Shown: positions 400 through 64,000 of the stretch, piece after piece | How the letters are laid out: each line of letters begins with the position of its first letter | How positions within the stretch are numbered: position 1 is the stretch's first letter | NCBI GenBank assembly: GCA_965178125.1 | Contig: OZ237741.1 | Coordinates: 806,001 to 870,000 of the forward strand | Source: Bilabrum cf. latius | Taxonomy: Eukaryota | Direction: 5' to 3' | Length of the DNA stretch: 64,000 bases | Position numbers and translations under genes: made by a program | Notes under the pieces: generated by a model | Told to the model about the DNA's origin: nothing | Database searches by the model: none | The model's input: only the letters and a program-made list of their open reading frames with translations

Positions 400-1425
400 T
401 CACTGCCTGCCATGTAATGCTGCATTAATTACATCGTCGATCTGGCGCTGCGCCGCATCGAGCTCTGTGACCTGCTGCGCCCCGCTATCGGCCAACCCGA
501 TGCTGCTAGATTCCTGCGCCGCTCGCTAAGTCAGGGCACGGCGGTACTGGTTGGAGAGTTCGATGGCTTGTTCTTCCTCTAGAACGTCGTATATGTCGAT
601 ACACTTGTGTAAGGGGTGCCTCCCACGGGAGAAGCCGGGGCTAGTGGCGTTCCATGGCCACTCCTAGTCCCGTGCTGTTGCCAGGCGCAAGCACACTGCA
701 GCGGAAACGGCGGGATGCAGCAGCTTCGACTCGCTGTGCATCTCTTGGAACATCCTAGCGGTGCCTTTGTCCTGCCTGGGATCTTCTCGCACGGCGCGCT
801 GCATGTCAGTGTCAAGCGGCCCCGGGGAAAACGAGAGAAACCTCGTCGAGTGACCGGGGCGCTCCGACCAGACCGCTGCCTCAGCGGCTGCACAATCCAA
901 AGCAGCAACCCTAGCAGCTTTTCCTGCTGAGTAAATGCTCCATGATGGAAATAGTGCTGGTTGCTCTGCAGCAAGGGAGCTCACATTCACCACTGTAGTT
1001 CGCACAGACTAGCTTTGCCTACTTGCAAGCTTTTGAGAGGTAGACACAACCCCACCGACCAATTGAATAAAACTCCCTACATTAACTCCGAACTACTCGT
1101 CGATATCGCGCCTTGCCAACTCAGTGATCTTACCAATTGGCTAGATGGAGCCATGGTTGAGGATTGCAAGTAAGTCAAGGACATCTGCTGGATTCGAGCT
1201 CATCACTCTTGCTTGAAAACTATCAAGCACTTCCTTGACATGTGCGTCACTACTTAAATCCCCAACCAAAGTGATAGCGTTGTGAAAATCACAAACTGTG
1301 CCTGATGTACGACCAAGGTGCGCCATCGCACATGCTGAGTTCAACAGGTGCTAGAATTGCACCAAAATTTCCTTTCCATACCCTCTCCCGCAACCAGTCA
1401 GTAGACCAAATATATTTTTATTCAT
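400..1425 (-). CDS. SPR: Sepiapterin reductase-like short-chain dehydrogenase/reductase (~341 aa; 6 in-frame TAG)
   Basis: One frame runs from ATG 1425 to TGA 400-402. Motifs: LLTGCGRGYG (TGxxxGxG), LNHGSI*PIG, VNVSSLAA, YSAGK (YxxxK), SPGPLDTDMQ and C-terminal CIDIYD (SPR-like). TAG at 1351, 1141, 1093, 1009, 664, 526. Exact orthology (SPR vs benzil reductase-type) is uncertain. Confidence 0.8.
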
Positions 1426-1576
1426 TCCATTGCAGACTTTTCTAGTATTGCTCACAATGTACGAGTAATGTTCCCTGCAAAATGCAGTCGTCACATAGCC
1501 ACCACGAGTTTCAGTGACGTTTCCATCACTATAAGAACAAGCGGAGCAGTGCAGTTACTTCTGTGTAGAAAGTACC
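1426..1576. promoter_or_regulatory. Probable bidirectional promoter between the SPR-like gene and TTC36
   Basis: Only 151 nt separate the divergent start codons. Confidence 0.5.
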
Positions 1577-2266
1577 ATGGATAAGGGTCTGGGAAGCGCA
1601 GATGCTGTGTTGGATTTCATCTTCAACCCGGCTGGCATGCCATCATCGGTTCCGAAAGGCCCCCTCCCTGATATGCCTGCTATCACGGCCGATAAAGCCA
1701 AAATTGACCGCGATGGTGACTTTCCTATCAATGAAGAGGGTAGGAGGCTCTAGGTGGAGGGTGTAAAGGCAGCTCAACAAGGAGATATTCCAGCCGCTAT
1801 CAAACACTTTTCAGCGGCTCTTACCGCTAATCCTGAGAATCCGTTACTGTTAAACGACAGAGCTCAGGCCTTAAGGGATAATGAAAATTACGATGATTCC
1901 TAGAAAGACATTGACGCTGCTGTTGCGCTAATGGAAAGTAAGTACGATGGCAAAAGACCAGTAGACTGGCCGCTACAGTCGAGAGTAGTGCGGTCCCAGC
2001 TAATGATGCAACAAGCCAGTCTATATAAACGGCGTGACGCGAACGAAACAAAAGCTCGAGAGCAGATGGAGCGCGCTGCCGCTCTCGGGAATCCGCTGGC
2101 ACAGGGGTTATTGGAAGAAACGAATCCGTATGCAGCCCTGTGTGGAGCTGCAGTGACGAAAATGATGGCTGAACAGATCGCGGGAGCTGATGCGAGCCCA
2201 GCTGCATCCGATCTCAGTGCAGCTGCTAGCGGTGGTGCTGCTGAGCCCAACGATGGGTGCAAGTGA
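1577..2266 (+). CDS. TTC36: Tetratricopeptide repeat protein 36-like (229 aa; 2 in-frame TAG)
   Basis: ATG 1577 to TGA 2264-2266. Contains AVLDFIFNP, L*VEGVKAAQQGD, LNDRAQA and ERAAALGNPLA...NPYAALC, matching the TTC36 family. TAG at 1751 and 1901. Confidence 0.88.
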
Positions 2267-2334
2267 CGTCGGCTCCGCTGGAAAAATAGAGATCATATTG
2301 GATATATTTTTTTAACGAATTGCTCGCCAATGCC

Positions 2335-4477
2335 TCAGAGTGAAAGTGGAACAATTTCCAAGTGACTTTCGTCGGATGCTACCTACTCAGGCTCGTAGTA
2401 CTGCACCTGCTGCACGCCGTCGCAAACAGCCTGTGCGTCCCGCGTCACGCCATCGATACCCTCTGCATCATCGTGCGAGTACTTGCTTGCAACAGATGGG
2501 GCCGCTGCACCTGCTTCGCCATCATGCAGGTATTCGCCTCCATCGCCAAGAGGGAATACTTTTGATATGTCCCTCGTAGATCGCGAGCGTACGTCTTTGC
2601 TCTCCTGCTCGCCCAGCTCAGGCACTTGCTCCGCGCTCCCCTCCGGCTGCTTCGCACCATCGCCAGGGGCGACGCTCCCAGGCTCATCGCTCTCATCCTT
2701 GAAGCCTCGCGTGCTCTTGCTGGCTGCCAGTGTCAGGTACTTCGTGTCGTCTCGGTACGACATGCAGCACATAAGGCCACGCATGAAACCAGCCAGCCAC
2801 GCAGGCGGCTCGGCCGCGAAACCCTTGCTCCACACCATGACCATCACGGCAACCACAAGCCACACCCCAGACACGATCCACTGGGCCAGCAGCAGATCCG
2901 GATGAATGGGAGCCAGGAACAGCCACCCTGTGGCCAGCACGAACGGAGAGATCAGCACCAGCGACCGCGGGATGGCAGCAAAGAACGTAGAGTCCACGCC
3001 CGTGTACTCCTTGCGGAACAAGTAGTTCCGCAGGGAGCGGCTGCCTGACGACAGCACGGTGATCAGCACGCCGCCGAAGAGAATGAACGGGTTGATCGTG
3101 CCAGCAGACAGCTGGAAGGCAAGTCCCAGCAGCAGCAAGCTCCACTGCTCCCTCGACCCGTAGATGTCGCTGGGCCGCGGCAGGAGCTTTCGCACAGCAT
3201 CGGGCAGCAGCACCTGAGCTACGTCGGAGCCCCACCGCACGCCTTGCGCACCCAGGAAGGATAGCCACAAAAAGCCGAACAGCTCAGCCGCGGCCCGATC
3301 GGCAGTGCCCATGGCCTCATTGACGGCCAGAGGGTGCTCCTGCACAGTGGAGCCGAGAGCCTTGACCTGCTTGGCTGTGTTGTACAGCAGCGCCAGGAGA
3401 GAGTTCACGATCGTCATGAATACCTGCAGCGTCACGATGTCCGAATCGCGGTCGGCCCGAGCATGTGGCACGCTGAGAAACAGATTCCCGAACTTCTTGG
3501 TCGCAAACAGCGTGATCGCATTGGACGCGTACACGATCACGCAGAATGCAATCCTGTCGTTCTGGAAGAACTCGATGCCGTTGATGATGATTTGCATGAC
3601 GGCCATGACGCTTAGTACCACCAGCACAAGGACCGCCAGAAGGCTCCGGCGCATGATCACCTCGCGCCACTGCTCCTTGGACAGCTCGATGCGGAGCGTC
3701 TTGCTGGGCGGCTTGGCACCCCAGAATGCGACTGCCAGCACGATGGGAAGGAGCACATTGAATGTGGCCGAGAGCACAGAGGGGAACCTCAGGCCGACCG
3801 AGCCCCCGCTGAGATCGTACCACTCTGGGAATGCTTCTGCTTCGCTGGATGGCTCGCCTTCTGATTCCTCCTCCTCTTCTTGCTCTTGCTCTTGCTCTTG
3901 CTCTTGCTCTTGCTCTTGCTCTTGCTCTTGCTCTTGCTCTTGCTCTTGCTCTTGCTCCTGCTGCTGCTCGCCCGCTGGCTCTTCACCTTCGGGCTCTTCA
4001 CCTTCGGGCTCTTCACCTTCGGGCTCTTCTCCTTCGGGCTCCTCTCCTTCGGGCTCTTCACCTTCGGGCTCTGACAGCAGCCTTAGAGTCGGCTCCTCAC
4101 CTTCGGGCTCCTCTCCCTCGGGTTCAGACGGTACGTATGGGATGAGACTGTCGATCTGATCTTCACGAACCTGCGCACTACAATTGTTTTAGTGCTCGGG
4201 AGCTTGATGCTTCGTGCACTCGCAGGTGATGAAGGAACAATATGCCGGCCAGCGTCCTGGACTGTCTCACCGTCTTCGCAAGCGCCGAACCACCCCCCAA
4301 CATATTAACCACAGATACAAATCCTGTCGCATTAACCTCTGCGCCGTTGCTCAAGTACAAACTTGTCCCGACAACAGAAATAGTACAGTCAGCCCGTGCG
4401 AGCGTGAGTGCGGCGCATATTGCAGCAGTGGCTGTAACTATTGCGGTCTTAGCCTCAAAGAAACGAAATAATGTCAT
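2335..4477 (-). CDS. Multi-pass membrane protein with signal-peptide-like N-terminus and acidic (EPEGE)n/(QE)n stalk, tandem copy 1 (~680 aa, 2 exons)
   Basis: Exon 1 is 4477-4271 (69 codons), intron 4270-4171, exon 2 is 4170-2335 ending in TGA. One TAG at 2383. About 10 hydrophobic segments; no family recognised. Confidence 0.8.
3879..4125. repeat. Coding tandem repeats: (TGCTCT)n hexamer encoding (QE)n, and 15-nt units encoding EPEGE
   Basis: Visible directly: TGCTCT run at ~3879-3957 and TCGGGCTCTTCACCT-like units at ~3975-4125. Confidence 0.9.
4171..4270 (-). other. Spliceosomal intron (100 nt, phase 0)
   Basis: GTGAGA...GCGCAG. Removal joins ALAKT to VREDQIDS in frame, at the same position as the intron in the paralog. 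Confidence 0.8.
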
Positions 4478-4881
4478 GGTATTCTATCCAGAGACGACGT
4501 CCACCTTCTTGTTCCACGTATCACCTCGCTTCTATTCACGAGTGCTGGCTCGAGTGCCCGTGGTGGTGTGCTCGGACAACTGCAGCATCCGATGCTGCCA
4601 ACACTTACAAGCCGCAGGATGCCTAGAATTGTGCGGGAGTGGTGGATGAGTGTAAAAACTGTCTTCAACCAGAGTAGCAGTCAACTCTGACTTGGTATAA
4701 ATGTGGAATTGTGCTGCCGGTGCAGGGCGAGGTCGCGAGTCGCGACACGCCAGAGGTTTGCGGCCACTGGCAGGTCCGAGATCGCACGGCTCAGAGCCTT
4801 TATCAGCCAGTGTAATTCCATAAAAAAACATGTACGCTCATTATTAAGTGGTTTCAATACTCTCCTCTCGGGACCTGAAAC

Positions 4882-6928
4882 TTACACAGCATGCGCGACC
4901 CCTGCAAGCTGAACACCACCCCCTCGACTAGATGTGGGTGCACCTGCACCTGCTCCAGCATCAGGTAGAACCTTGTTGGTATCTCCAGCAGGCAGGAGAG
5001 TGGATGTATCTTCCTAGTGCTCTGTGGGTGCTTCCTTGCTCTCCTGCTCGCCCAGCTCAGGCACTTGCTCCGCGCTCCCCTCCGGCTGCTTCGCACCATC
5101 GCCAGGGGCGACGCTCCCACGCTCATCGCTCTCATCCTTGAAGCCTCGCGTGCTCTTGCTGGCTGCCAGTGTCAGGTACTTCGTGTCGTCTCGGTACGAC
5201 ATGCAGCACATAAGGCCATGCATGAAACCAGCCAGCCACGCAGGCGGCTCGGCCGCGAAACCCTTGCTCCACACCATGACCATCACGGCAACCACAAGCC
5301 ACACCCCAGACACGATCCACTGGGCCAGCAGCAGATCCGGATGAATGGGAGCCAGGAACAGCCACCCTGTGGCCAGCACGAACGGAGAGATCAGCACCAG
5401 CGACCGCGGGATGGCAGCAAAGAACGTAGAGTCCACGCCCGTGTACTCCTTGCGGAACAAGTAGTTCCGCAGGGAGCGGCTGCCTGACGACAGCACGGTG
5501 ATCAGCACGCCGCCGAAGAGAATGAACGGGTTGATCGTGCCAGCAGACAGCTGGAAGGCAAGTCCCAGCAGCAGCAAGCTCCACTGCTCCCTCGACCCGT
5601 AGATGTCGCTGGGCCGCGGCAGGAGCTTTCGCACAGCATCGGGCAGCAGCACCTGAGCTACGTCGGAGCCCCACCGCACGCCTTGCGCACCCAGGAAGGA
5701 TAGCCACAAAAAGCCGAACAGCTCAGCCGCGGCCCGATCGGCAGTGCCCATGGCCTCATTGACGGCCAGAGGGTGCTCCTGCACAGTGGAGCCGAGAGCC
5801 TTGACCTGCTTGGCTGTGTTGTACAGCAGCGCCAGGAGAGAGTTCACGATCGTCATGAATACCTGCAGCGTCACGATGTCCGAATCGCGGTCGGCCCGAG
5901 CATGTGGCACGCTGAGAAACAGATTCCCGAACTTCTTGGTCGCAAACAGCGTGATCGCATTGGACGCGTACACGATCACGCAGAATGCAATCCTGTCGTT
6001 CTGGAAGAACTCGATGCCGTTGATGATGATTTGCATGACGGCCATGACGCTTAGTACCACCAGCACAAGGACCGCCAGAAGGCTCCGGCGCATGATCACC
6101 TCGCGCCACTGCTCCTTGGACAGCTCGATGCGGAGCGTCTTGCTGGGCGGCTTGGCACCCCAGAATGCGACTGCCAGCACGATGGGAAGGAGCACATTGA
6201 ATGTGGCCGAGAGCACAGAGGGGAACCTCAGGCCGACCGAGCCCCCGCTGAGATCGTACCACTCTGGGAATGCTTCTGCTTCGCTGGATGGCTCGCCTTC
6301 TGATTCCTCCTCCTCTTCTTGCTCTTGCTCTTGCTCTTGCTCTTGCTCTTGCTCTTGCTGCTGCTCGCCCTCGGGCTCTTCACCTTCGGGCTCCTCACCC
6401 TCGGGTTCCTCTCCTTCGGGCTCTGACAGCAGCCTAAGGGTCGGCTCCTCGCCCTCGGGCTCTTCACCTCCGGGCTCCTCTCCTTCGGGTTCCTCTCCTT
6501 CGGGCTCCTCTCCCTCTGGCTCTTCACCTTCGGGTTCCTCTCCCTCGGGCTCCTGTCCTTCGGGCTCCTCTCCCTCGGGTTCAGACGGTACGTATGGGAT
6601 GAGACTGTCGATCTGATCTTCACGAACCTGCAGTGTTATTTGCAAGAGAGCAATGTTGTTTCAATTGGTCATCAATGGTAACGCCCAGACGGTTCGTCGT
6701 GTTGACAGTTGTTGGCCTCACATCATTTGCAAGAGCAGAACCACCGCCCAGCATGTTCACAACCGATACGAACCTTGTCGCATTAACCTCTGCGCCGTTG
6801 CTCAAGTAGAGGCTAGTGCCTACTGTAGAGACGTGGGTTCCACCGCGTGCAAAAAGCAGCGCCGCACCAATGGCTGCAACAGCCGTCAAAAAAGCAGTTT
6901 TAACCTCCAAAAAGGCATACAGAGTCAT
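4882..6928 (-). CDS. Multi-pass membrane protein, tandem copy 2 (~650 aa, 2 exons)
   Basis: Exon 1 is 6928-6722 (69 codons), intron 6721-6628, exon 2 is 6627-4882 ending in TAA. TAG at 5014, and similarity to copy 1 continues beyond it. Confidence 0.8.
6318..6585. repeat. Coding tandem repeats (QE)n and (EPEGE)n in copy 2
   Basis: Shorter TGCTCT run and more 15-nt units than in copy 1. Confidence 0.88.
6628..6721 (-). other. Spliceosomal intron (94 nt, phase 0)
   Basis: GTGAGG...CTGCAG. Joins ALAND to VREDQIDS in frame. Confidence 0.8.
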
Positions 6929-7328
6929 TGTATTCGCTCCTGATATTCGCTGCATTTTCTTTTTCAGGGGGGCCCCATCGGGAACCGGTCGTGCGTTGGT
7001 TTCGCTAGTCATTCTCAACGACTACAACCGAACACCGAGGAGTTCGTTGAGCGAGCCAGAACGACTTTCCTGTCTAGGTGTCCTTAAATCAAGTTGGACT
7101 CAATGCCTGGATGAATCTGGCAACAAAATGAAATGATATCCAGGTGACTATTTGGATGGAGAGTCGAGCACGTGCCAGTCGCCGCCGCGCCGCGACGGTT
7201 CCGCAAAACGCCACCAGCTTGTGACTTGGGCCGCTGTCCAGACCTGCCGCTGACAGTTTGCGCAGGAATGCAGCTAGTTTGATAGCTCAATGCTCTTTCC
7301 ATAATATGGATATGTTTGTGCCACAATT

Positions 7329-8483
7329 TCATGAAGAGCTCCCTTTGTGGCCGGCAATGGTCTCAATTGCAGGGGCTCGGTGAGCACACTCGGCGATCAG
7401 CCTCATCACCGCCACCTCCCCGGTCGCAACCTCCTCTGCCTCCCGCAACGACCCCATCACCATCCCTCCTCGGCTCACTTCAGCGCTGCTCAGAGTGGGA
7501 AACTCGATCCCTTCTTCTCCCAACCTGCTCTGCGCCCACTGCAGCATCCGAAGCATCAGGGGCAGTCGCGTGGAGGCCAGCCGTCCCTGCCTGGCCAAGA
7601 TCGCCTGGTTCACCTCATCGGCTACATGGCCCCGGTATGTTATGGATAGGACCTGCCTTACCTGCCTGGGCAAGGTGGTAGATGCTTGCGAATGTCCCAG
7701 CTCTGCGGCGGCACTCAAACTCGGCCCAGCTGAGGCCTTCGCCAGCCCTGTGGTCGATGGAGAGGATGCGCTCAATCCTGCAGAAGAATGGTGGGGCTGC
7801 GGTAAAACGGACCCGTTCAACACCCCGCCTTCTGTCTCTGTAGCATCTGCACTCGGGCCGCTTTCATGCGACTCTCCACACTGCGACAAACGTCTCTCAT
7901 CCGGTGCAGAGCCAGTCACATCTGCAAGCATGATTGCCTGCATGATCACCTCTAAATCAGACCGTAATTCACTAGATGCATCCACTATAGGTCGAACGGA
8001 CGTGTAAACTCTCTTGAGAGCTTCACCATGCCGCCCTTTCCTGAGTAGTTCGCAAGCAGCGTGTTTGTGCAGCTCAAAGGCCACCTTTGGAGCTTCATCT
8101 AACAGTCCAGGGAACTATTTAGATATTGTGAGGAGCGATTGATCGGGTTTACCACACAAAATACTCCTCAGTACATGTGAGCGCGCCTCATCTTGCTCGG
8201 AAACACGCTTGGACCCTAATTCGTGGAATCCTGTTTCGGCTTCAAAGGCTTGCGCTGCGGGCAGATACCCTTCAACAGTTAGGAATTCATAAATCAATCC
8301 GTTTAAGAATCTGCAAAAATGAAAGGAAACGAAAATAATGGAGAATCATCTGCAGTTGCAGTTCGTCGTCCAACCAAGAATAGGCCCCGGATTGCTGCCT
8401 TACCCCTTCGAAACGTCTGCCTGGGCGAGAAAATCACTCCAAGTTCGCTTTCGGATTTCTTTTTGCGGAGATGCTGCACTCAT
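7329..8483 (-). CDS. GID8: GID8/TWA1-like LisH-CTLH-CRA protein (CTLH E3 ligase subunit), 2 exons, 1 in-frame TAG
   Basis: WSDFLAQADVSKG|FLNGLIYEFLTVEGYLPAAQAFEAETG (LisH), ILCGKPDQS...*FPGLLD...FELH (CTLH), VADEVNQAIL...RLPLMLRMLQWAQSRL (CRA). Intron 8403-8311, TAG at 8115, TGA at 7329-7331. The start could be further upstream. Confidence 0.8.
8311..8403 (-). other. Spliceosomal intron (93 nt, phase 2)
   Basis: GTAAGG...TTTTTGCAG with a pyrimidine tract. Removal restores the LisH frame. Confidence 0.8.
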
Positions 8484-9398
8484 TAGCGCTCTTTGCTTGC
8501 TCAGCAAGGCAACATCGCTCGACGTGAATTCCGGGTCACTGCGATGATCCGATCCCAGGCACATGCAATCGTGTGTGCAAGCTGCCGGCAGCATCGGTTA
8601 GGATGCAATGGTCGTGGTGTAGGTGGGCTTTTAAGGGGCGGCTCGGTGGTATGCAACCTGTGGGCGGTGAAGTAGATGCTGCGATGCTGCGTGCGGCCCC
8701 GGGGTGCGTGCGGGCACCCCCGCTGTTGCACCTCGCACAACCGTACGGACACTTGAGAGATCAGATCATCCCAAGGTGGTCACATGGTAAGACTCCTTCG
8801 GGCTACAGCGGATTCCATCGGATTCCATCGGGCTCCATCGCATCGCGGTTGTCAGTCCGGGGCTCTGGCACGAACAGGCCGCATTGGTATTGGCACTGGC
8901 ACTGGCATTTGCATTGGCCCGTACTTCAAGTTGAGCCCAAGCGGTGCAGCACAGGCGCATAACGCATCAAACTTCGACGATTGCTAGAAGTGGCTACATG
9001 TAGCCAGGGCATGTGCTTGTCGGAATCTGGCAGGGCACGAGCGCTGAATGGCAGTGGCCGGGTGATGTGGACATTCAGTGGAAATGCCGCCGGCAGACCT
9101 GTACCTCGTAAGGTCTATGCCTGCATTGGGGCATATGTCCTGCTAGTGCGACAGTGAGTGGGACCAGCGGCGCGGCGAGCACGTGGCCTCCCCTCCCCGA
9201 TGAAGGTCTCGGTTGGCGTCGTCACATCTGGAATGCGTTCTTGAGGCACGTTTGAGTCTGAATCACAACCGCGTGCCTTCGTCCTTGGCTTGAAAGTGAA
9301 AGGAGAATAGCCTTAACTTTCTGTAAGTCTGACTTTGAGACAAGTGGTGCAGTCGCATCACTTGAAGGCTTGGTTCTTGCAGATTAGGGATCGCCTGC

Positions 9399-11663
9399 AT
9401 GGCGGCAGCCCCGCATGAGAAGCCCCCAGAGTGGCTTCGCCCGCTGATCAAGACGTCACTACGAGCAATAGTAGATGATGCGTGCAAGTCATCGGAAAGG
9501 CAGCTCCAAGAGTGGCCCACCGTGACTGCGCCGGCGGAGAGTATCTACAAATCTTCGATGGGATACCCCAGCAAGATTCTAGCTGCCATGGCTGGAACCG
9601 CGGCTGAAAGTTTTGTGTACTCTTCCACAGTCCATTTTGACGGTATTGTGCCAGGTAGAACTGCGAAGCGCCGAGTGCACGTTTTGCAGATGAGGTGCGC
9701 TCCGCAGCCACGGCGCACAGGATCTTGCGGTTTTAGGGCGCTAGCAAACGCAAGAACAATGGCACTGCACCTAGAGGAGCTTATGTAGCGACTATCTACT
9801 TCAGGGGAGGGTCGGCCAGCGAAACCTACGGTGCCAGTTGGAGCGGATCTTGCTAGTGCGTCGCAGCCCAGCGCCGGACAAGCAGCTGGCAGCAACGGTG
9901 GAAGTGCTGCAACAGGAGCTGCTTCCACAAGCACCGGAATGTCTACCGATCCAGTTGATGGCGCCGCATTTGTTGGGCCGCTGTCTGAGCAGCTGCGTTC
10001 TCACGGCGAGTACGCCATCGTAGAGTCTGGAACCAAGCGCTCGCTGCAACTAGAGGCGGACCGTCAGCGCTCGGAAGAGGGTGAGGTGAGGATGGCGTTC
10101 GATGACAGAACTTTGAAAGGGTCGGTCATCGAGCGCAGCCACATGGACTTCGTGTTCAGCGACCGAGCAAAAGGTACTCCTTGCGAGCGTCTGTTTGGCT
10201 GGATGCGCGACAAACTTGTCAGAGTGAACGAGTTTGGCATGGATTCAGTGCAGCAGAGCGGGCTTAGTCATTGGACTCCAGCGCTAGATTCAGCCTTGAC
10301 GGCATTCGTGAAGCCCGGCGGCGAGCCAACATATCGGGTTTTCATGCTCGGTTTGGCCGACCACTGGATGGTCGCATCTTGTGCCCGTCTGTCGGATGAT
10401 GAGTGGGTCATCATCCTTGTGGACTCGCTGAGCATGCAATTCCTCGGCAGAACAGAGGAAGAGGTGAGGCAGCAGATCGCTAAAGGTGCTCTGGTGCGAG
10501 AGGAGAAGTACAGGGCCGAAGATCCGGAGGGGTCCTATTTGGACATCCCGCTGTGGATCCGATCAAGATCCCAAGTCGCGACCAGACTAGGCGCTTCGTA
10601 CTTTGTGGGGCTCATGGCGCGCGCGCTCGGAGGCGAGGACCCCCGGAGGCACCTGGCCGAGGTGGGTGTGTACGGCGCGCTGTCAACCTTCCCAGGGGCC
10701 CAAGACTCGATGCCAGGCATGGTCAATCCTGCGAGGAGCTGCAGGCACCTGGTCAGACCGGCCGTGGGAAACCCGCTGGCAGCTCGGAAAGAGGACTACA
10801 TGGCCTGCTTTGGGAGGGATCCAACGGCCGAAGCTGAGTACGCAGCCTACGCCAAGGAGCACGGGGTTGTGCCTGTGGCAGCAGCAGCCGCTGCCGACCC
10901 TCCTCCAGAGGAAGGTGCCGCTGTAGCGGCAGTCGGGGAACAGGACGGCGCCGCGGCGGTAGAGGCAGCAGAAGGGGAAGCAGAGGCTGGGGCAGCTCCA
11001 GAACTAGGCATGGTCGGGGCGATGGGAGAGGCGGGCCCGTCTTCGGGTGCCGGAGCTATCCCGATACGACTGTCGTCTTCCAACCGCACTACCAGCTCCG
11101 GCATGTGGGACGTGCCAGAGGGCGAGGACATTGACCATGACCCTGAGCATACCGGTGCACTGGCGTCGTGGGTCGCAGATCCACCGCATCCGCCCATGGA
11201 GCCGTTTCCGCCTGAGGCCACGGATCCGGCTCTGATCGCTGCAAGCTCAGCAGCTGCTTCGCCCATGGATCCCGCTGCATTTTACCTGCTATTAGTGCGA
11301 CACTACGAGAGGTGCCCTGCCATCATTCTCGCGCGTATCCTCAGTAAGTTTGCCGGAAAAGACCACCTGCTGTTGCTGTCGCCGCTCATGCGCAGCCGCA
11401 TGGCAGTCTTCGCAGATGCTGTGTGCCGCAGCATCGCTGTCAAGTGCGGGCACGCTGGCGCCCTCCCACTGCCGCACATGCTCAACGTGGCCGTACTTGG
11501 GAAACATGCAAGGACGTAGGCGAGAGTATACGAGGCTGCTATGCGCCTCGGCGAAGCTCTTGCCATCGTGGCCGTGGAGAGTCCACTGGAGACAGCCACC
11601 GCTGGGGGTGGGAGCGGGGATGGACCGGCAGCGCCCTCGCAAGAAGGTTGCATTGTGGGCTGA
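9399..11663 (+). CDS. Putative papain-fold (Josephin-like) cysteine peptidase/deubiquitinase with C-terminal CaaX-like CIVG (754 aa; 2 in-frame TAG)
   Basis: ATG 9399 to TGA 11661-11663 in one frame, TAG at 9786 and 11517. Motifs PQPRRTGSCGFRAL, ADHWMV, IILVDSL; ends GCIVG. The function is an inference from motif order. Confidence 0.7.
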
Positions 11664-11749
11664 CGTGCGACTATTAAGAACACGCAGAATTTGCAAATAA
11701 CAGGCGTCTATCTTTTTGTTGCACATGAACGGGTCTCGATTGCCTTATC

Positions 11750-13204
11750 TTACTTCTCCACTTTGTCCTGAGCAGCGGCGATCTCCTCGTCCGTGTTGAG
11801 CTCGGTCGAGGCACCCTCGTCGGCAGGCAGCTTGTAGACAGCCTTGTCCACAGCCGCGGGGAACTTGAAGTAAGCACTCAGATGGGGTATGTGCTCGCAG
11901 AAGAGCAAGGGCAGCCCTAGATTCACCCGGTTGAAGATTGAGAGGTGCTGCGCCAGCTGGCCCATGCATCCCACATGAAACGTCACGTGCTGCGGGGGCT
12001 GTACACCATCCAGTGTCAATCCGCCGTTTGCTGCCGCATCCAACTGCAACTTCTTGCAGAGTATCGCGATCGCGATGCACTCGGAAACGCCTGCCTGCCT
12101 TGTCGGGTCCAGCTGCACCACGTCGAGCGCACCCCGCTGAAGATAGTTCTTGAACACGACCCTGTTGGGGATGGCTTCTCCAGCGGCAACCAGCGTGCCC
12201 GTGCCCTCTAGAGACTTGCGCAGAGTGACATGCGCCTCTACATCGTCGGGATGGCAGGGTTCCTCGATCCAAAAGACGCCCAGCTTAGCCAGCTCTGCCC
12301 CCATCTCGAGAGCGAGCGAGGTGGTCCACTGCTGGTTCACGTCAACCATCAGCCGACCGGACTCGCCGACCTCCTCGCGAACGATCTGAACCCGCCTCAG
12401 GTCCCGTTTCGGGTCAGGAGACCCGACCTTGAGCTTGAGAGCCCCGAATCCAGCAGCCTTCGCGTCGCGAGCTCCTTGCCGGATCTTCTCGTCGGGGAAG
12501 CTGATCCACCCAAAGCTCGTATCGTAGCCCGGAAATCCTCCGAGCGCTTGGAGCTCCTTGAAGCGGTCTGATGAAGAAGTACCCGCCTCGATTAATTTGG
12601 CGCTGGTTCTTTCTCCTGCACCTCCACTAGCCGCCCCGGATCCACTCTTTGCCAGTGGGGAGTACTTGCCGGACAGTAGCGCAGCTGCATCTTCGCCCGT
12701 GAGGACGTCTTCCAAACCGCTCAAGTCCAAAGAGCGGACTATTTCTTCGGGACTTAAAGCACCGAGCGCCTTCCACAGGGGCATGTGGACAGTTTTGCTG
12801 TACAAATCCCACAGGGCATTCACAATTCCAGCTTGCGCAAGGCTCACAACACCCTTGTGAGGGCCTAGCCACCTCCATTGCGGATGGTCGGCGATTTTCT
12901 TTTGCCAATCTCCAAGATTTTCAAAAATAGAGCGTACTGTTTGCCCAATAAGAGGCGAAGCCAGGGTCTTCGCAAGGCTGCCAATTATCTCTTCACCAGC
13001 TCCCAAGGTAAAAGCGATACCGTAGCCCGCTGGACCAACATCGCTGCCGGTACTAGTGCGCAGAATAGTAACAGAGTACCCGTACTTCGAGCTGTCATGC
13101 ACCGCATCAGTGCCCTCCCCCGGAGCTAGCCGAAAGGCAAGATCTCGAGTCTCAACTGCAACTACACGGGGACTCTCCTGCGTTGGCCATTGAATCAGAG
13201 TCAT
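11750..13204 (-). CDS. L-fuconate dehydratase-like enzyme, mandelate racemase subgroup of the enolase superfamily (484 aa)
   Basis: WRWLGPHKGVVSLA, NALWDL, KLKVG, MVDVNQQW, WIEEP..PDDV, AAGE, HVG. Uninterrupted ORF ending in TAA. Confidence 0.9.
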   Translation of the reverse strand: MTLIQWPTQESPRVVAVETRDLAFRLAPGEGTDAVHDSSKYGYSVTILRTSTGSDVGPAGYGIAFTLGAGEEIIGSLAKTLASPLIGQTVRSIFENLGDWQKKIADHPQWRWLGPHKGVVSLAQAGIVNALWDLYSKTVHMPLWKALGALSPEEIVRSLDLSGLEDVLTGEDAAALLSGKYSPLAKSGSGAASGGAGERTSAKLIEAGTSSSDRFKELQALGGFPGYDTSFGWISFPDEKIRQGARDAKAAGFGALKLKVGSPDPKRDLRRVQIVREEVGESGRLMVDVNQQWTTSLALEMGAELAKLGVFWIEEPCHPDDVEAHVTLRKSLEGTGTLVAAGEAIPNRVVFKNYLQRGALDVVQLDPTRQAGVSECIAIAILCKKLQLDAAANGGLTLDGVQPPQHVTFHVGCMGQLAQHLSIFNRVNLGLPLLFCEHIPHLSAYFKFPAAVDKAVYKLPADEGASTELNTDEEIAAAQDKVEK

Positions 13205-13375
13205 TCAGCGAGAGTGCAGCGTATTTTATTCAGAGGATTTATTCGATGCGCTCAGCTTACCATTTGAACCAAGTGTTGTGATCGAGACGCGCGGTACGCT
13301 GTTCTGAAAGTACACTCTACAGCCTGAAGGCAGCGAAAAGCTTGTTCGTGCACAGCATCCTTTCCGTCTGAAATA

Positions 13376-18778: not shown

Positions 18779-19143
18779 ACTGTCTTTTTTGCTGTAGATC
18801 TGATGCCACTTTGCGAAATCTGATATCTGAAATGCGAATCGAGCACGCAAGTACTGCGGAACCACCAAAACGATGGTGGCGCGGCGCCAAGCCAGCAGCA
18901 ATTTGCTACCAAGCGCCACAATTCATGAGTTTTGACCAGCCTACACATACGGTCTGGTAAGTTTACTTACTTAGTACAGCTAGAGGTAGGCGCTTCTACC
19001 GCTGAAGAGCACCACAACACTTTTGCTGTTCCATCATGTCCAATCCATCCGTTGACGGTGAAGCAACTGGCACCGTTTCGGATGCAGGGGGCGAAATTCA
19101 GCTGTCACGAGATGAGTTACAGTAGATATTAAATGCACAATCA

Positions 19144-55000: not shown

Positions 55001-58000
55001 GAATCAATCGGCTCATCTTTTCTGCCCACAATGCGCTTGCTGTGGTTAGGAGGGTGAAGCGCCTGCCGGCCGCTGCATCCGTCACAGGAAGGTGTCGGCC
55101 TCCAGCTACTGGCAGCACCCGCCCTGGGAAGAAACCGAAGGTGTCAAGCTTCGAATTTGTCTCCCAAGGAGCAGGCGGCCTGCCTATGAGATTTCGAGAG
55201 GTCGAAGGAGAGCCAGTGCGACCAACCTTCGGCTGTGGACCGCTGTGCTGTGATGCAAGTGCCTGCGGGCTCGAGTCACTAGGCTTTGGGGCGACCCCTG
55301 CCTGCCCCCACGAGTAACAGCACCCATACGAGGTCCAAGCCACAGTGTGATTGGCACCACATGAAACCGCCATCACATTGCGAGGTAAGCACGGTACCGG
55401 CTGGAACTCTAGACTTCGAGCCACCTCCCGACCGCGACCAAGCTGACCCAGCCCTCCGATGCCGGAGGCCATGCACAGAGAGAGCCCCCACTGCAACCGT
55501 CTCTGCGCTTGTTCGTCGGAGATGGTGTCTTCTTCTAGACGCAGAGGCAATTTCTCGAGGGACGGCCGAAATAAGTCTCCAGGAAATCCTCGAAAAGCTC
55601 GCCTGTGCTGCACCACGATGGCAGAGTGCCACAAGCCGCACGAAACTGAAACCGTTGCCCAGTCCTCCGGCAAATCGACTCGTGCGGGCTACCAACGACC
55701 TCGCTCGTCGCCAAGGCCAAGCCTGCCGCCAGCACCTTCACCCCAAGAAAAGAGGCGGCCATCTGCAGTGCAAGCAAGAGTGTGGGCGGATCCGCACGCA
55801 ACCATCGCAAATTGCAATTTCGGTCGAATATTCCATCCATCCGGGATGAGATCAATGCTTTGATGGTCCCTCAATGACAGCATGGATGCGTGACCGAGCT
55901 CCTGCGAGTCCACTGCAGACGCGTTCATGTCCGCATGTTGCTCGAATCCATGGTTGCTACCCTCTTCAAGGTCATCTTTGGCATGCACCGGAGTAGGTGC
56001 AGGAAACACATCTACACCCTTAGCCTCCGCTTTCGCTCTGGCCTTCCTCTGAGCCATGGATCGGCCCGATGTGCTCAGCTACTCGAAGTCCTGCTCTTCA
56101 AGTTCGTCCTCGGCGTCATAAAGTGCACCCGCCATTGGTGCCACGCCGAGTCGCCCGCCTCCTGCCATTCCCCAAGCCCACAGCCCTCCTTCCTCTCCAA
56201 TGGCTGTGCTATGCACACTCCCAGCTGCAATGCCAGCCACCTTTCTCTTGGTGAGAGTGTATTTGCTAAGCATTGTGTTTGGCTGCATGTCCAGTCGTAC
56301 TGCTTGTGCTTGGTTACCCGATCGGTCGGACGTCCGCCGCGCCGCTCCCGCCGCTCCCGCCGCCGCCAGCCCCGTTTGACCGCTCCCATCCGCACCTCCG
56401 CACAGAAGCAGCCCGGCTTCATCAACGCACAAAACGTGGTCACCCCCAACAGCTGCCTAGACAATGCGACGGAATCGCAACTGTTGATTCCGTGCCAGGC
56501 GTGGTCTAGTCTGCGGAGGAGGCCTCGGGCGAAGGAAATCAGTAGGCGATTTTGATTCGTCTCCGGGCTCGATGGCGACGCCGTCCGCTACCGCGCTACT
56601 CTCTGCAGCTGTCCTGCTGGCAACAATAGCCGGGCCAGGGCCGTATTGGCAGGGGCACATTTCGAGTCCAGTCTCAGGTTCACCAAATAGGGATTCTGGA
56701 CCTGACGCTTGCAATCCTTTCTTGGAGCTCTTGGATGCTGCCGCTGCAGCGGCTGCTGCATCTCCGCCAAAATCCCCGACCAGACTCGCCCGTCTTGCCC
56801 GACCCCCTCCAGCCGCAGTTGTGGCCTTGGCAGCCAGCGTGGAGGCCGTTTGTAGAGCAGCTTGCCCGGGAGCAAAGGCCAGTACCTCGGGTTCTTCCCT
56901 AACCTCCACGTTCTCGAAATCATCGGCATCACCAGAGCTGTCACCCACGCTGTCTTCAGTCGAGTTTCGTCCGAAAGCCATGTCGGTTGACTCCTGAGAT
57001 CTTAGCTTGCCGAGCGCTTCCAAAGCCTACGCAGCGGTTGATCCTCGACGTTGCTGGCGCGATCTCGCCGCAATGTGCTTTCTCGCAGCAAGCGCCGTGG
57101 CGGTTGCAACCGCGGCCCCGCCTTTGCTGAACTGAGCGAGTCTAGCGGCACGGCGAGCTACTTCACGCTAGTAGGCGGCTCTCCGTTGCACCTCAGCGTG
57201 CAGCATGGTCCACAGCAAAAACGCCGCACGCCTAAGCTTCTGCACCTCAAACCCACCCAGTTTACCTCGCATGCTGTACACGACACGACCATCTGGCAAA
57301 TTTGATCGAGCTGGGGCAACCTCATCCAGGGCAATCGACAGGGCCAGAGCGGCTTCAGTGGCATGCATCCACCTTGGCATCAAGCTGCGGATCCTCATTT
57401 GCTCTTCTGCGGCTGCTGTCTCCGCCTACAAGCCGCTAGACAGCGGCTCAAGCAAAGGCTGAAGCCAGCCCTGGGGCGCAGCGACCTTATCCCATGGCTG
57501 TCCTGAAGCCTCCTAGATCCTGCGTTCCAGCCACTGGCTCTCGTGCTGAAGGATTCCTCGTGGACGTCTCGATGTACGGCCAATTGTGGCCGCGCCAGTC
57601 TTCGCAGAATTGTCTCGTGCGTTCTGTCCAGACAGCAGGCCTTTCAACACCTGCCCTTGCGCCCTTCTCCGCTTGGCTTGCCGCTACTTGGCCGTCAGAG
57701 TGCCTTTACTTGTGCCTGTTTCTGATTTTTCCTCCTCGTCACCATGCGCCTGCTGTGCACTGCTGAATGTGTTGCCCATGGCAGTCCGCATCGCGGCGAG
57801 GTCGTCGATCCCTGCCAGCTCATACCTCTTCAAGAAGCGCCTCCGCAACAGCGCGAGACTTATGATAATGCCACGGGCCGCGGCTGCATCAGATAGTGCA
57901 CTTGAAGGCTCTTGCGGTAGCCTTTTTAACGACCATGAGCGCTGCAGCCCCGTGTCAAACTAACCCCACTCTGCAGCCCTGGCTTGCAGCACACCTTGAG

Positions 58001-59348
58001 CCCCCGTGGCGTCGACTGCTTGCCTTTGATCCTGTCTCGAGAACCGCAAAGCGGCTTCTCTCAGCAGCAGCATTGCAGCCGATGCACCCCTTGGTACCTT
58101 CATCGTTGGCTCATCTAGCGCCGCCAGAACGTCATCGCCAGGGGCAGCCACAGCTGCGCCCTCGCCTGACGCCGCTACCACTGCCATGGTCTGCGCGGCA
58201 TAGGCGACGGCGGAGTTTCGTCGTTCTCCCATCCGTCGCTTTGCGCCTTTCCTCTTGTGAACTAGGCCTACTTGTGGCAGCATTTCTCCTACGGGTACCA
58301 GCTGATCGCCTTGTTTGCTCCTGCCACTGCTTGGCGCCGAGGCATGCCCTCCTCCTTCGGTTCGGCCACCGTTCGCCATGAATCTCCTGGCGGCCATTAC
58401 ATCCTTGCTGCTATGCACCGCGTGATCATCACCAACAAGCCAGGACCCAGTGGCCAGTTTCCTGCCAGCAGATGAGTCGTCACTCCCGGCAGAACCGCCC
58501 CCCATGACGTAGGCCCTGCCTGACGCCGTCAGCACGATAGCTCGGCTGCCCGCGCTACCACACGCGTGAACAGATATGGGTCTCCGGCCAAACAGCAGCC
58601 AGACAGGCTGTGGCGCTGTGAATCCGCTGCCAACCTCTGGGCTGCTCGACGCATCTGCGGGGCTGCTGCTGCTGCTGCTGCTGCTGCGATTCGAGGCCTC
58701 TGCAGTGCCCGTGGAGCCCTCGCCAGGGAGTGGTGCCCCGAAGGCACAAACGCCAGAGAAATCGCCCTGCTCGATTTTCCAGTCCTGCTCCGCATCTCGC
58801 ATGGCATGCCCTTCTCTGCCTGCCTGCACGCGCGCCCAGGCCGCGAGCCGCCTCCTGAGGACTGCAACGGACTCGCCGCCGTTCACGCCGGCATCTCCCC
58901 TGGATACCAGAGCCAACAGCAACTGCTCTCTATTGGCCAAGGCAAGCCCACCAGACAGCCAAAATGCAGCATCATCGCCAACGTCATGCTGGTCGACGCT
59001 TTGCTGTCCATCTGGAGTCTCCTCGTCCTGTCCGACTGTATCTGCCGCGAACTTCCTGCCAGCTCGTTCCCATATTTCGGCCTCTACTCGCTCAGAAGCT
59101 CCATATGCTCGATCTTTCTGTTTAATACGACGAAGCCTAGCCTCCTCCTCGCGCTTGCGCCTTTTCAATTTGGAGTACAGGCCAGAGTCGACCAGCTTCT
59201 CGCGAAGCATTCGCTCGCCATCCCTAGGCAAAATACGCATCTCAATACCTGCATTCTCGGCAAGCTGCACTATCCCTGCCCCTATTGCATCTCCAAAGTT
59301 TCCAAGTGCGAGCGCGGCTCGGTGAAGCGTACTTGAGTTATCAGTCAT
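46038..59348 (-). CDS. Giant RCC1-repeat protein with IQ, WW-like, Cys/His and C2H2-like motifs (~4436 aa; ~26 in-frame TAG)
   Basis: All long minus-strand ORF fragments share one frame from ATG 59348 to TGA 46038-46040, broken only by TAG. RCC1: IV*AAVGGDH, IAAGSVHS..GGRLG, VACGSAHTLA..FSWGEGAGGRLGLGD, VSCGANHTVA. IQ-like QLSKLWRGHIARR; FACAGCNRSF..DWRRH. Confidence 0.78.
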
Positions 59349-60788
59349 TTTGCTAGCAGTACTTCAAGCAAACTTGCATGGGACACATCCAGCAACTCTC
59401 GCAATCATTCTAGTGCTACACTTATTAAATGAGGCAAAAAAAATGAATAGAAACGTACTGATATTGTAGACAATTGCTCGTAGTGTGCCTAAAATAGGCT
59501 CATTGTGAATTGGTCCGTTTAATAATCGTCATCACTGATTGCATCACCCGGGGCCCAGGCTGCCTCTGGCATCTCAGTGATTGGTTCTTCTTACTTGTAT
59601 CCAGCCGCACAATTTATCGCATGATGGCACAGCCAGCTACCACAGAATCTGTGAACAGGCGCATTTTTCTTGAGTATGCATGATGATCAGGGGGTCGCAC
59701 GCTGAGGTCGCATTGATGACTCGGAGCATCGGGAGGAGTCCGATTCGGGACCAAACCGCGCACCTGCCGCCCTTCGATGGCAAACAGACGAATGGCAGCG
59801 ATGTCGTAGTCCGGTCCACGAGGGGCGGGTGCGAGATGGTGGACGTGCAGGTGCGCGGTGTCCGACAAAGACCGTTGCTCTACTAGCGGAATGGAGCTCA
59901 AAGGCGGCGCACGAGGGAGCGATGGAAGGTCTGCAGCGGGTGCCAGTACTGATGCTGCCTTCGGCGGCGTGGGACAGCCGGCGAGGAGGGGAGGAAGGGA
60001 GGCGAGGATCTAAGCTGCTCAATCGGGCGACGAACGTAAGCGGCAGGCAGCAGCAAAGAAATATTAGGGTCTAGTTTGGTAGTCAGGTTGAACGAGGGAG
60101 GCCGGTGGACTGTCTCTTGCGCTGCATGATGGAGCTAAAGGGGTGGATGCGGCATGGGTGGTGGTTGTGGCGGTGCGCCCACAGTCTAGCACGGAGGTAC
60201 CGCATTTACGGATTAAAAGCCCCTTATGCGGGCGGAGGGTTCGAGAGGGGCGTGCCAGTGGCGTTGCAGGCTGTGATTCTGCGTCGCAGGGGCCTGCAAA
60301 GGATGGGACTGTCAGTTGAGCTGAGTCAGCTGATCGCTGAACGCTGTGACGAGAAGCACAGCAAAGGCCGGGGGCGGTTGTTCGTGGGGGCCGACGGGCA
60401 TGCAAGGGCTGCTAACCAATCGTTCGCTTGTGCGTTATGCATGCCGAGTGGTCTTGTAGGCGCCAGCGTCGGCATCGCGATTCTCACCAACGAAACCTCA
60501 GCACGACACAACACATGAGCCTTGGATACTATTGCAGCTGCAATCAGGGCCGAGTTTGGCTGTTTTTATTCATTTTCTCATACTGCTGCGAACTATGCAG
60601 GGCTTCGCCAGTTGCTTGCAAGCAGCACTTTTTTTTGTCGGCGCCGGGACCCGGAGCAAAAACTTCAAGTTGAACTCGACTCGGTCAGCTGCAGTTCACG
60701 TGCGGCCTTTGGAAGCCCCTTGCCGCGCGCTACGCCAGTTTTCGGTCCATACTGAATAAAACACGCAATATTTGCATATAAGTGACTA

Positions 60789-63700
60789 ATGTCAGGAACA
60801 ATCGCAGGATCAGGAATGGGCATGGAGAGCGCTTCGTCAGCTGGTCGTCATCAAGCCAGCAGCAGCACAGCAGGCTTCTTTAACTACGCTGGAGCAAACA
60901 CGTGCCTTGATAAAATTGGTTTATAGTTGGTCAGGTCATTGTTCGGGACTCTCGGTCTGCTTACCCGGTCACAAGAGGATCAGCGGCTCATCTACATCAT
61001 GATACAGTTGATTCGCTCGCTTCAAATTTCAAGTTTTATCGTTTCAGTGGACCCAGTTCTACCCTGGAGGGACTCACCTGCTGCGTTAGCGTATGGTCGA
61101 GCGGTATCCTACCTTGCACCAGCTTCGGTTACGAGTTCGAGCGGCGCGAGCGCCTTCCTACCCCTGTTCTCTCTCGCCGCCGCATGGACCTTCGTCGTGT
61201 GCGGAATGGCTGCGTTCATCGCCGTGTCTTTTCTGCTGGACTGGCCCTAGAATGGCCTTCTTCTGCGCACGTTTCGCTGGGCTGGGTCTCTCTCGGCGTC
61301 GATCCTGTTCCTGCCGCTCTCGGGGTTGCTGTTCCGAGGCATTGCGTGCAGCGGGGACGACTGGCTGGAAACTGGGGCGTCCTGCACGTCCCCCGGGCGG
61401 GTAATCACAGCAGTACTTGCAATCATGCTGGTTCTGGTTCTCACCGGTGAGAATACCGATAGCGCCCCGGGCATCCGAACCCCAGCCATCGCGACCCACA
61501 GCAGCTCAACTGCCCAACTTCTCTCTCCCCCGCAGTCCTTGCCATTCTGGTTGCCCTTGTCTTCCATGACAAGGATCCCACATCTGCCTCATGGGCAGCC
61601 AAAGCTACCGGTCGGCTGGACGTGGCCATTCTGCTCATCATGCTGCTGCTCTCCCTGGTGTCCAACCTGCTCTCGGACCAGCTCCAGGGCGGGCTCATCA
61701 TGACACTCGTGCACATAGCCTGTGGCGGGCTGTGGTACTATCTGCAGGCATCCATGCTGGTGCACCCTCTCGCTGAAATGAACGGATTGATGGGGGGTTT
61801 CTCGGCCAGCTACCTGTGGTTTGGGCTATGTCTCGCGATCGCGCAGGCTTCACCCGCCGGGCAGGACCACTCGGCACTGCTGCTGCTTGGAGGCATCACG
61901 GCCGGCACTGCGGGAGGCCTCTTCGTCTATGTGCGTCAGTTGCAGGTGGTGTCGGTCAGACTTGAGGATTTCAGCGCCGGGAGCTCGTCTGTTTATGATT
62001 TGAACGCATGGATCAGGCACCGGCTGCGCAAGATGGCCAAGCTCGAGTCGCTCGCTGACGCAACCACCGCACAGGCATACGCCGCGGCAGCGGCGCAGGA
62101 GCAAGAGGACAACGACAGTAGGGTCAGACAGTCTAGCTCGGCAGCCGCAGCGACTGCTGCTACGTATAGTGACATGGGTGGCACGACAATGCAGGGCTCC
62201 TCGTCGGCGACGAGAAACGCGCAATCGGGCCACTAGGGTCACATCGGGGACGGCGGTGTGTCGGCTGCTGTCGATCGGGCCTCTCGTGCTCGCATGGCGG
62301 AGCAACGTCGGCTGCTTCGAGAGGCCTTCCGTGGCATGCACTTCCTCCTCACCCAGTTCCCGCAGTCGGAGATGGCCTGCATGCTGGCGTCCATCGGGTT
62401 CAGGGACCACAGCCCCTGGCTCTTCCACGAGGCTGTGGCCCTTGCCCGCGCCAGGGGGCTGTCCCCCTCCCTAGACGTGCTATTCCACATCTACTAGCGC
62501 GCGACCCAGCTCCGCGAGACGGGGTCTGAAGGAGCGTCCCCCATTGACCGCGTCCTATTCGACTAGATGTTCTCGCAGGCGCAGGAGGCTCGCACCAAGT
62601 GCTTCCAGCTGCTTACCAGGCTGTGGGCTACCATGGCGCACACGGCACCTGACCTTGACGAGCTCTGGTCCGTTGGGCTGCAGCTCCAGCGCACACTGCG
62701 CAAGGCAGACTCTCTGCACAGGGCCATGCTGGAACTCAATGGGGACAGCGCTAGTGCGCTGAGGGCATACGCTAAGCACTTGCTGGATCTGGGGCAGGAC
62801 CCAGACAGGGCACAGGAGCTGCTCAACAAGGCAGATAGGTTGGAGGAGGTGCACAAGAGCGACAAGAGGAAGGTCATTAAAACAGTTACCATGTTGACGC
62901 CATTTTCGTCCTCCAGCTCGGCATCCTCGGGCTTCGACAGCGTGGATGCGGGCGGCGGGGCTGGCATGGCCTCTGCAAGTGCAGCGGCGGCCAAGCGGAA
63001 GGAACTGGCAGCCCGTGGGATGCTCGGCGTGTCTGCTGTGGAGATGCTGGATGTCAAGGCGGCCCGCCTGTCCATCATGGATGAGAGCAGTGCAGTGATT
63101 GCCATTTCCGGGCAGGGGTCCTCCACCGGCGAGATCGTGGCTGCGTCACCAGCGGCGTGCAGGATGCTGGGATACACGCAATCAGCGCTGTTGGGCCACA
63201 ACATCAATAGCGTGCTACCGGAGCCCATCCGCTCCGCCCACGACTCATTTCTTAACCGGTTTGCTGCGGCCCCAAGGCAGCGCACTAGGGTGCTCAACCG
63301 GGACCGAGCGGTGTTCTACTAGCGCTAGGACGGCTCCCTCGTTCCGGCATGGAATACAATCATCGAGACACCCCCCGACGAGCAAACCTTTGAGCCCAGG
63401 TTTACTGCTGTGATGCGACCCATCGTAAGCGAGGATGACTACATCACCTTTGCGCCCGCCGACGGAGGATTCCGGATGTACGCGGCTACGCAGAGGTCAG
63501 TCGATCTGCTAGGACTGACGCATGAGCAGTTGGGAGATGGCAGGGCAAGTATGCTAACCTATTTTCCCACGGCAGCTAGCTCCTTTACGTCTGCAACCGT
63601 GGAACTCGACCGGGAGCAAGTGCGACAGCTGCGGTTGCAGTCGGCGGCCCAGGACATCAACCGCCAGTTCGGGTTGCGAAAATTGAATCGGAGGACGCGG

Positions 63701-64000
63701 CGAGCCTCGATGCTTCTCAGCAAGGGCAAGCCGTCCGAGCGGGATGGCAGCGTTGCATCAGGCCCGCAGACTGGCGAATCAGGAGCAGCTGCTGCACTAG
63801 ATGGAGATGACTTGATGGATATGCTGAGCCAGCTGGAGGGTTCTGTCGGCGGCACCGGTACAAGCCGCAGCCACAGCAAGGCGACTTTGTTCGTCAATGA
63901 CAAAGGCGTCGTCAACCGATCTGGGAGTGGAAGGGTCCTGCAGGAGGACAGCGATGACGGCACCGAGGGCCCTGGGCTGGGCAAACGCGGCATCCAAATG
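60789..64000 (+). CDS. TmcB/TmcC-like (tiny macrocysts) multi-pass membrane PAS-domain protein, 3'-truncated by the window (7 in-frame TAG, 1 intron)
   Basis: N-terminal multi-TM region, helical TPR-like region (LRAYAKHLLDL..D...AQELLNKAD..EE) and PAS domain (IVAASPAACRMLGY....LLGHNINSVLPEPIRSAHDSFL). Intron 61447-61535; open to the window end. Confidence 0.78.
61447..61535 (+). other. Spliceosomal intron (89 nt, phase 1)
   Basis: GTGAGA...CTCTCTCCCCCGCAG. Explains the frame change and restores a continuous TM helix (LVLVLT-VLAILVALVF). Confidence 0.8.

Follow-up and report, generated by a model that had tools for sequence, protein, structure and literature searches.

Nuclear genetic codes in which UAG and UAA differ in meaning are rare; PMC5304391 and PMC11687900 name a single rhizarian, Iotanema, Scotinosphaera and a handful of ciliates. 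In the fornicate Iotanema spirale, UAG encodes glutamine (Gln, Q), and UAA and UGA are stops (Panek et al., 2017, PMC5304391; PMC9161772); a change of the eRF1 motif GTS to GGS has been linked to this code (PMC9161772). Among ciliates, UAG alone is assigned to Gln in Protocruzia tuzeti and two phyllopharyngean lineages (PMC11687900), while further phyllopharyngeans read UAG as leucine (Leu, L), and one ciliate uses UAG for glutamate (Glu, E) with UAA for lysine (Lys, K) (PMC5304391; PMC11687900; PMC9161772; PMC6299283). Outside the ciliates, the aphelid Amoeboaphelidium protococcarum is reported to use TAA as well as TAG for Gln (Karpov et al., 2013, via PMC5304391, PMC6299283 and PMC11687900), the rhizarian exLh reads UAG as Leu, and Scotinosphaera reads it as serine (Ser, S) (PMC5304391; PMC11687900). 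The present analysis concerns the meaning of TAG in the genes of a 64,000-nucleotide stretch from Bilabrum cf. latius (Eukaryota; assembly GCA_965178125.1, contig OZ237741.1, positions 806,001 to 870,000 of the forward strand), the whole of which is referred to as the window.

The window is best explained as part of a GC-rich, intron-poor nuclear genome in which UAG is a sense codon, most likely for Gln, and UAA and UGA are the only terminators; the probability of this reading is put at roughly 85%. This set of assignments corresponds to NCBI table 15, the 'Blepharisma' code; the code is of a known kind, the lineage possibly an undescribed one. Cytoplasmic translation would then read UAG as glutamine. 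From what is seen in other reassignments, a tRNA-Gln with the anticodon CUA would be expected to decode UAG, and eRF1 would have lost recognition of UAG while still recognising UAA and UGA.

One line of evidence comes from the reading frames. Sixteen frames delimited by TAA and TGA alone, 18,984 codons in total, hold 114 in-frame TAG codons, no TAA and no internal TGA; the three TGA of the raw tally are terminators that fall within the chosen coordinate ranges. Off-frames 1 and 2 of the same DNA contain 79 and 57 TAA, 290 and 452 TGA, and 182 and 160 TAG, respectively. TAG occurs in 15 of the 16 frames, the one without it being the enolase-superfamily (MR_MLE) gene. A few counted TAGs probably lie 5' of the true start, for example 44802 ahead of the DMC1 methionine, and a stricter set gives 107 TAG per 18,015 codons. 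Translated with the standard code, the window has no stop-to-stop frame longer than 652 amino acids, whereas treating TAG as sense opens frames of 4441, 2738, 2681, 1848 and 1330 codons. GC content is 55-65% throughout and about 59% overall. The bases that follow TAG are distributed like those that follow CAG, with no special context visible.

These counts bear out the central claim of a preliminary description of this DNA, that TAG is a sense codon across the nuclear genes of the window; frames, domains that span TAG, contigs and two relatives agree on this point. All 12 coordinates it named (45063, 45087, 44213, 1751, 1901, 1141, 1093, 8115, 34212, 56457, 63320 and 63326) are in-frame TAGs, and its statement that internal TAA and TGA are missing also stood. 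Its tally, about 110 TAGs spread over 15 of 17 genes and about 19,000 codons, agrees with the present one in the number of TAGs and of genes that carry them, but 16 frames were resolved and a seventeenth gene was not. The frames and introns are as follows; Pfam left four frames without any match, and X followed by a number (X138, X170) denotes below the TAG codon at that residue of the encoded protein, except in the names of sequencing runs (X1, X5, X7, X8).

400 to 1554, minus strand: SDR gene, sepiapterin-reductase-like; TAG at 1351, 1141, 1093, 1009, 664 and 526; TGA end at 400-402; Pfam adh_short 9e-14; 47 homologues.
1535 to 2266, plus strand: TPR gene, TTC36-like; TAG at 1751 and 1901; TGA end; Pfam TPR families.
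2338 to 4188, minus strand: paralogue A of the membrane-protein pair; acidic EPEGEE repeat; TAG at 2383; no Pfam match.
4885 to 6660, minus strand: main exon of membrane-protein paralogue B; TAG at 5014; TAA end.
6628 to 6721, minus strand: spliceosomal intron of paralogue B, 94 nt, GTGAGG..GCAG; joint 6625>6720 (cut +2) in a contig of run X5.
7329 to 8345, minus strand: LisH/CTLH gene, main exon frame, of which 8311-8345 is part of the intron; TAG at 8115; TGA end; Pfam CTLH 3e-09, LisH 8e-05.
8311 to 8403, minus strand: spliceosomal intron of the LisH/CTLH gene, 93 nt, GTAAGG..TGCAG; joint 8310>8404 in contigs of runs X5 and X8.
9366 to 11660, plus strand: gene of unknown family; TAG at 9786 and 11517; TGA end; no Pfam match.
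11753 to 13204, minus strand: enolase-superfamily (MR_MLE) gene; no TAG; TAA end; Pfam MR_MLE_C 6e-46.
13379 to 18922, minus strand: RCC1-repeat protein, 1848 codons; 12 TAG; TAA end; Pfam RCC1 3e-34.
19006 to 27048, plus strand: 2681-codon frame; weak IQ motif; 20 TAG; TGA end.
27139 to 28431, minus strand: frame of 431 codons; one TAG (27778); TGA end; no Pfam match.
28988 to 32977, plus strand: frame of 1330 codons; five TAG; TAA end; no Pfam match.
34047 to 42260, plus strand: 2738-codon frame, its C-terminus DUF639-like; 22 TAG; Pfam DUF639 4e-09; used for the comparisons with relatives.
42344 to 44722, minus strand: CARNMT1, carnosine N-methyltransferase-like; TAG at 44456, 44300, 44213, 43541, 42884 and 42464; TGA end; Pfam CARME 5e-67.
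44940 to 45929, plus strand: DMC1, meiotic recombinase, single exon; TAG at 45063 and 45087; TGA end; Pfam Rad51 3e-107.
46041 to 59363, minus strand: giant RCC1-repeat protein, 4441 codons; 26 TAG; TGA end; Pfam RCC1 7e-18.
61451 to 64000, plus strand: TmcB-TPR/PAS gene, truncated by the window end; six TAG, of which 63320 and 63326 fall within the PAS fold; Pfam TPR_TmcB 1e-19, PAS 1e-05.

Fifteen of these genes have a terminator in the window, TGA in 11 and TAA in four. A code in which both UAG and UAA mean Gln (UAR = Gln, table-6 type) is used by many ciliates, hexamitids, some ulvophytes and, as reported, Amoeboaphelidium. This code was rejected for the window: were TAA used relative to CAA as TAG is relative to CAG (CAG and CAA numbering 590 and 246), about 47 in-frame TAA would be expected beside the 114 TAG, and there are none. 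The use of TAA as terminator in four genes contradicts it as well. The reassignment is thus confined to UAG, as the preliminary description had it.

Several TAGs lie within conserved folds. The DMC1 protein matches human DMC1 at 4e-103, its two TAGs falling inside the N-terminal domain, and the alignment reaches residue 341 of the 343-residue chain 1v5w_A. The alignment of CARNMT1 with its human and yeast counterparts runs through a TAG (PDB 5yf0, 1e-50). In the SDR gene, a conserved C-terminal motif common to the homologues follows the TAG at 664 without a change of frame. Pfam domains, Rad51, CARME and RCC1 among them, continue across TAGs, in keeping with the earlier observation that TAGs occur within intact folds.

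The sequence of the window is also present in public runs from several studies. Contigs, rather than raw reads, of four runs from four studies were compared with positions 1-20000. Run X1 behaves as DNA: its depth is flat at about 44-48, and its contigs run, unspliced, through intergenic DNA and introns. Contigs of runs X5 and X8 are gene-sized and break in intergenic DNA, and their depth differs from gene to gene. Both, from two studies, skip 8311-8403, and X5 further skips 94 nt at 6625>6720. Read on the minus strand, these pieces have the ends GTAAGG..TGCAG and GTGAGG..GCAG, respectively, and splicing leaves the frames open. From these joints and the contig shape, we infer that X5 and X8 are derived from transcripts. 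The removal of GT..AG introns in such contigs shows the DNA to be nuclear, a claim of the preliminary description to which the splicing at 8310>8404 in two studies and at 6625>6720, together with the DMC1 match, now gives substance.

The same contigs indicate that TAG is retained in messenger RNA. X8 contigs cover 274-1450 and 1554-2322 with no differences from the window; X5 contigs cover 4821-6302, and 9277-11684 with no differences; and contigs of both cover the LisH/CTLH gene. These pieces hold 13 of the 27 TAGs of positions 1-20000, with no differing letter at any of them, and each of the 13 is contiguous with its flanking exon. The sole letter difference among the contigs, T>C at 5219 in run X7, is not at a TAG site. 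Since the TAGs are unchanged in X5 and X8, assembly error, removal by splicing and complete editing do not account for them. Assembly error, which had been named beforehand as an outcome that would overturn the proposal, was not seen, as contigs of separate studies match the window at the covered TAGs. It is accordingly extremely unlikely that the TAGs go untranslated, be it through assembly errors, pseudogene decay, splicing or RNA editing, or are passed by low-level readthrough. Rare edited forms would escape a comparison at contig level, and no other support for such an explanation was found. Decay would also yield TAA and TGA, whereas the in-frame count of both is zero; two relatives hold their frames open with TAG only; and readthrough, if it had to occur at 114 sites and as many as 26 times in one gene, would yield no product.

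Distant homologues gave no consistent residue for TAG (G, E, A/Y, M, N) and were dropped as a basis for assigning one; in the SDR gene, for example, the four TAG columns alignable among 47 homologues are mainly A, G, A/Y and P/S/N. Close relatives are more informative. In a search of a representative library combined with a word search, short open-reading-frame fragments of a relative were found to be 80-97% identical to window proteins; the short-fragment searches gave three and two matches among 8000 candidates scored. The fragments were evidently cut at stops by standard-code gene calling. Four end exactly one residue before a window TAG (X613 and X753 of CARNMT1, X1330 and X2578 of the DUF639-like gene at 34047), and two end before a Q of the window (Q158, Q2064). 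Where fragments span a TAG in a context that is 91-97% identical, they carry Q at four of four sites (X1027, X1230, X2523 and X2728 of the DUF639-like gene). Less similar fragments have K at X394 (80% identical), and Q at X89 and E at X141 (67% identical).

A second, more distant relative is represented by a metagenome contig (L001; 5217 nt, 56% GC), the one contig found by a scan with a TAG-free part of the DUF639-like gene. It is open over 1738 codons in a single frame, in which TAG occurs 24 times and TAA and TGA never, and its protein is 53% identical in amino acids to that of the window gene over 1641 aligned positions. In codon usage, the contig has 24 TAG beside 33 CAG and 24 CAA, TAG making up about 30% of its putative Gln codons against about 12% in the window; no TAG position is common to the two in the alignment.

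At the 35 reciprocal TAG sites of L001 and the window, the residue opposite TAG is Q at 11, A at five, G at four, R at four, S at two and L at one. At sites with a local identity of at least 0.5, Q is found at nine of 15 and E at one, against a background of about 3% for Q. Q is the maximum-likelihood meaning of TAG by 14-20 log-likelihood units over the next residue, with substitution frequencies taken from the same alignment, and the codon behind all 11 of those Q is CAG.

A number of observations weigh against Gln, or against the evidence that leads to it. The column of X170 in CARNMT1 is E in 141 of 150 homologues and Q in two, that of X138 in the SDR protein is G in 44 of 47, and in human DMC1 the residues opposite X159 and X167 are M and N. 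In the relatives themselves, the residue opposite a TAG is in some cases E (X141, and X1230 in L001), K (X394 and X1820), A, R, H or another one. CAG is one transition away from TAG, and this mutational proximity inflates Q matches in close relatives. On the side of the contigs, automated labels for the RNA nature of X5 and X8 are guesses, X5 being labelled 'probably DNA', none of the runs with this sequence is listed as RNA, and contigs drop rare variants, so that partial editing could escape notice. The window, moreover, holds neither a tRNA gene (none was found by ARAGORN) nor eRF1, and the decoding mechanism is thus drawn by analogy.

The CARNMT1 column and the E and K opposite some TAGs in the relatives are what favours a sense codon of another meaning, for which Glu is the most plausible residue and Lys the next, both being single first-position neighbours and known outcomes elsewhere. 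Were Glu or Lys the meaning of TAG, its synonymous neighbours GAG or AAG should prevail in conserved context, and they do not: GAG is found at none of the four TAG sites that the closest relative spans in fully conserved context, and in L001 the well-aligned sites favour Q over E by about 30 log-likelihood units and over K by about 26. A residue other than Gln is therefore considered quite unlikely, and Gln is retained.

The ends of the genes raise a different concern. TAG lies within 49 codons of the terminator in eight of 15 genes, where about 3.8 would be expected (binomial P 0.019), and this excess leaves, weakly, a little room for TAG as a stop too. The role of UAG might then depend on its position, as in ambiguous codes of the Condylostoma or karyorelict type, a sense codon inside genes and the true terminator of some of them, with frames delimited by TAA and TGA overrunning into the 3' untranslated region by chance. 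Indeed, the standard-code open reading frame ends at the last TAG in several genes, the two membrane paralogues and the gene at 9366-11660 among them. When TAGs near gene ends are counted individually, however, the enrichment is weak (eight against 4.5 expected, P 0.08). The tails between the last TAG and the following TAA or TGA, 241 codons pooled from eight genes, have a codon log-likelihood ratio of 0.119, within the range of interior coding sequence (0.057-0.218) and outside that of non-coding DNA (-0.19 to -0.02), whereas the DNA just 3' of TAA and TGA terminators scores as non-coding (-0.15). Since the tails score as coding, translation is argued to continue through the last TAG. The closest relative, furthermore, has CAG at the last TAG of the DUF639-like gene (X2728), where translation must go on in that organism. 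A dual role of UAG is thus unlikely, and UAG as a sense codon throughout remains the favoured reading; the surplus of TAG near gene ends may go back to TAGs that once served as terminators, to Q-rich tails or to chance.

Among the described systems, Iotanema, likewise a non-ciliate eukaryote, has the same code table as the window, UAG alone having passed to Gln with UAA kept as a terminator. The two differ in depth, as the nearest sampled relatives of Iotanema, Euthynema and PCS-ghost, keep the standard code (PMC9161772), whereas two relatives, at about 91-97% and about 53% identity, share the trait here. Nothing in the window data places the organism among the fornicates, the group of Iotanema. 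The ciliates in which UAG alone means Gln likewise retain UAA as a stop. In contrast to them, the window is long, multi-gene chromosomal DNA with 59% GC and GT..AG introns of 93-94 nt; no ciliate affinity appeared among the named homologues of window proteins, and no other test of ciliate membership was made. Like exLh and Scotinosphaera, the window shows UAG reassigned independently of UAA in a non-ciliate nucleus, but the residue differs, with L at one, S at two and Q at 11 of the 35 reciprocal sites.

Amoeboaphelidium resembles the organism of the window in being a non-ciliate with a nuclear change from stop to Gln, and some of the best named SDR matches are from chytrid fungi, a neighbouring group. 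As a candidate identity, it was rejected on its GC content of 40.5%/39.9% (PMC10608142, Table 1), against about 59% here, and on TAA being a stop in the window (four of 15 genes). In the literature openly available as full text, no GC-rich non-ciliate with UAG alone as Gln was found besides Iotanema.

Named homologues give a scattered taxonomic picture. The best for CARNMT1 are from Nannochloropsis and Lichtheimia, at about 40-42% identity, and those for the SDR protein are from chytrids, animals and Heterococcus, at 27-37%; across the window, the best named homologues are taxonomically scattered and at most about 42% identical. The nearest atlas clusters to the MR_MLE gene (11753-13204) are bacterial MR_MLE families, look-alikes that are uninformative on affinity. 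Tentatively, and at somewhat less than even odds, the organism, its relative at 91-97% identity and the environmental relative at about 53% may belong together in a GC-rich clade of eukaryotes, not recognised before, in which UAG alone passed independently to Gln while UAA stayed a stop.

Other features of the window concern individual genes. The membrane-protein paralogues A (2338-4188) and B (4885-6660) stand in tandem and encode multi-pass membrane proteins that carry long acidic repeats (EPEGEE and EQ). Over 446 residues the two share 94.6% amino-acid identity, and their C-termini diverge. Assemblies of the public runs are interrupted or missing here, with 2669-4002 nearly uncovered and reads cut at 3864-3973 and 6303-6373. 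Near its 3' end, the RCC1 gene at 13379-18922 (minus strand) encodes about 19 GQ dipeptides in a run, a coding microsatellite, and the X1 assembly is cut at 13643-13757 within this gene. CARNMT1, on the minus strand, lies head to head with DMC1, on the plus strand; the two frames, as delimited by TAA and TGA, overlap at 44589-44722, and the shared upstream region is therefore very short (window 44589-44940). Just 5' of the TmcB-TPR/PAS frame, a plus-strand frame at 60786-61703 with two TAG and hydrophobic, membrane-like segments is possibly an upstream exon of that gene. No Rfam family was detected in the window.

Should the proposed clade be real, it would be among very few non-ciliate cases of this kind. 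Unlike in Iotanema, the depth of the trait would let the uncoupling of UAG and UAA be studied, and the excess of TAG near gene ends would be the footprint of former TAG terminators that came to be read through into extensions. The organism is GC-rich and apparently cultured, given its presence in several runs, and has relatives at two depths, which would make it a tractable system for the question of how UAG and UAA are distinguished by eRF1. One could ask, too, if the change was made easier by the low use of UAG in a GC-rich genome, and what became of genes that formerly ended in UAG. For the genome itself, annotation must use a table in which UAG is Gln, because gene callers set to the standard code shatter such genes, and relatives consequently stand in protein databases as fragments that end at TAG.

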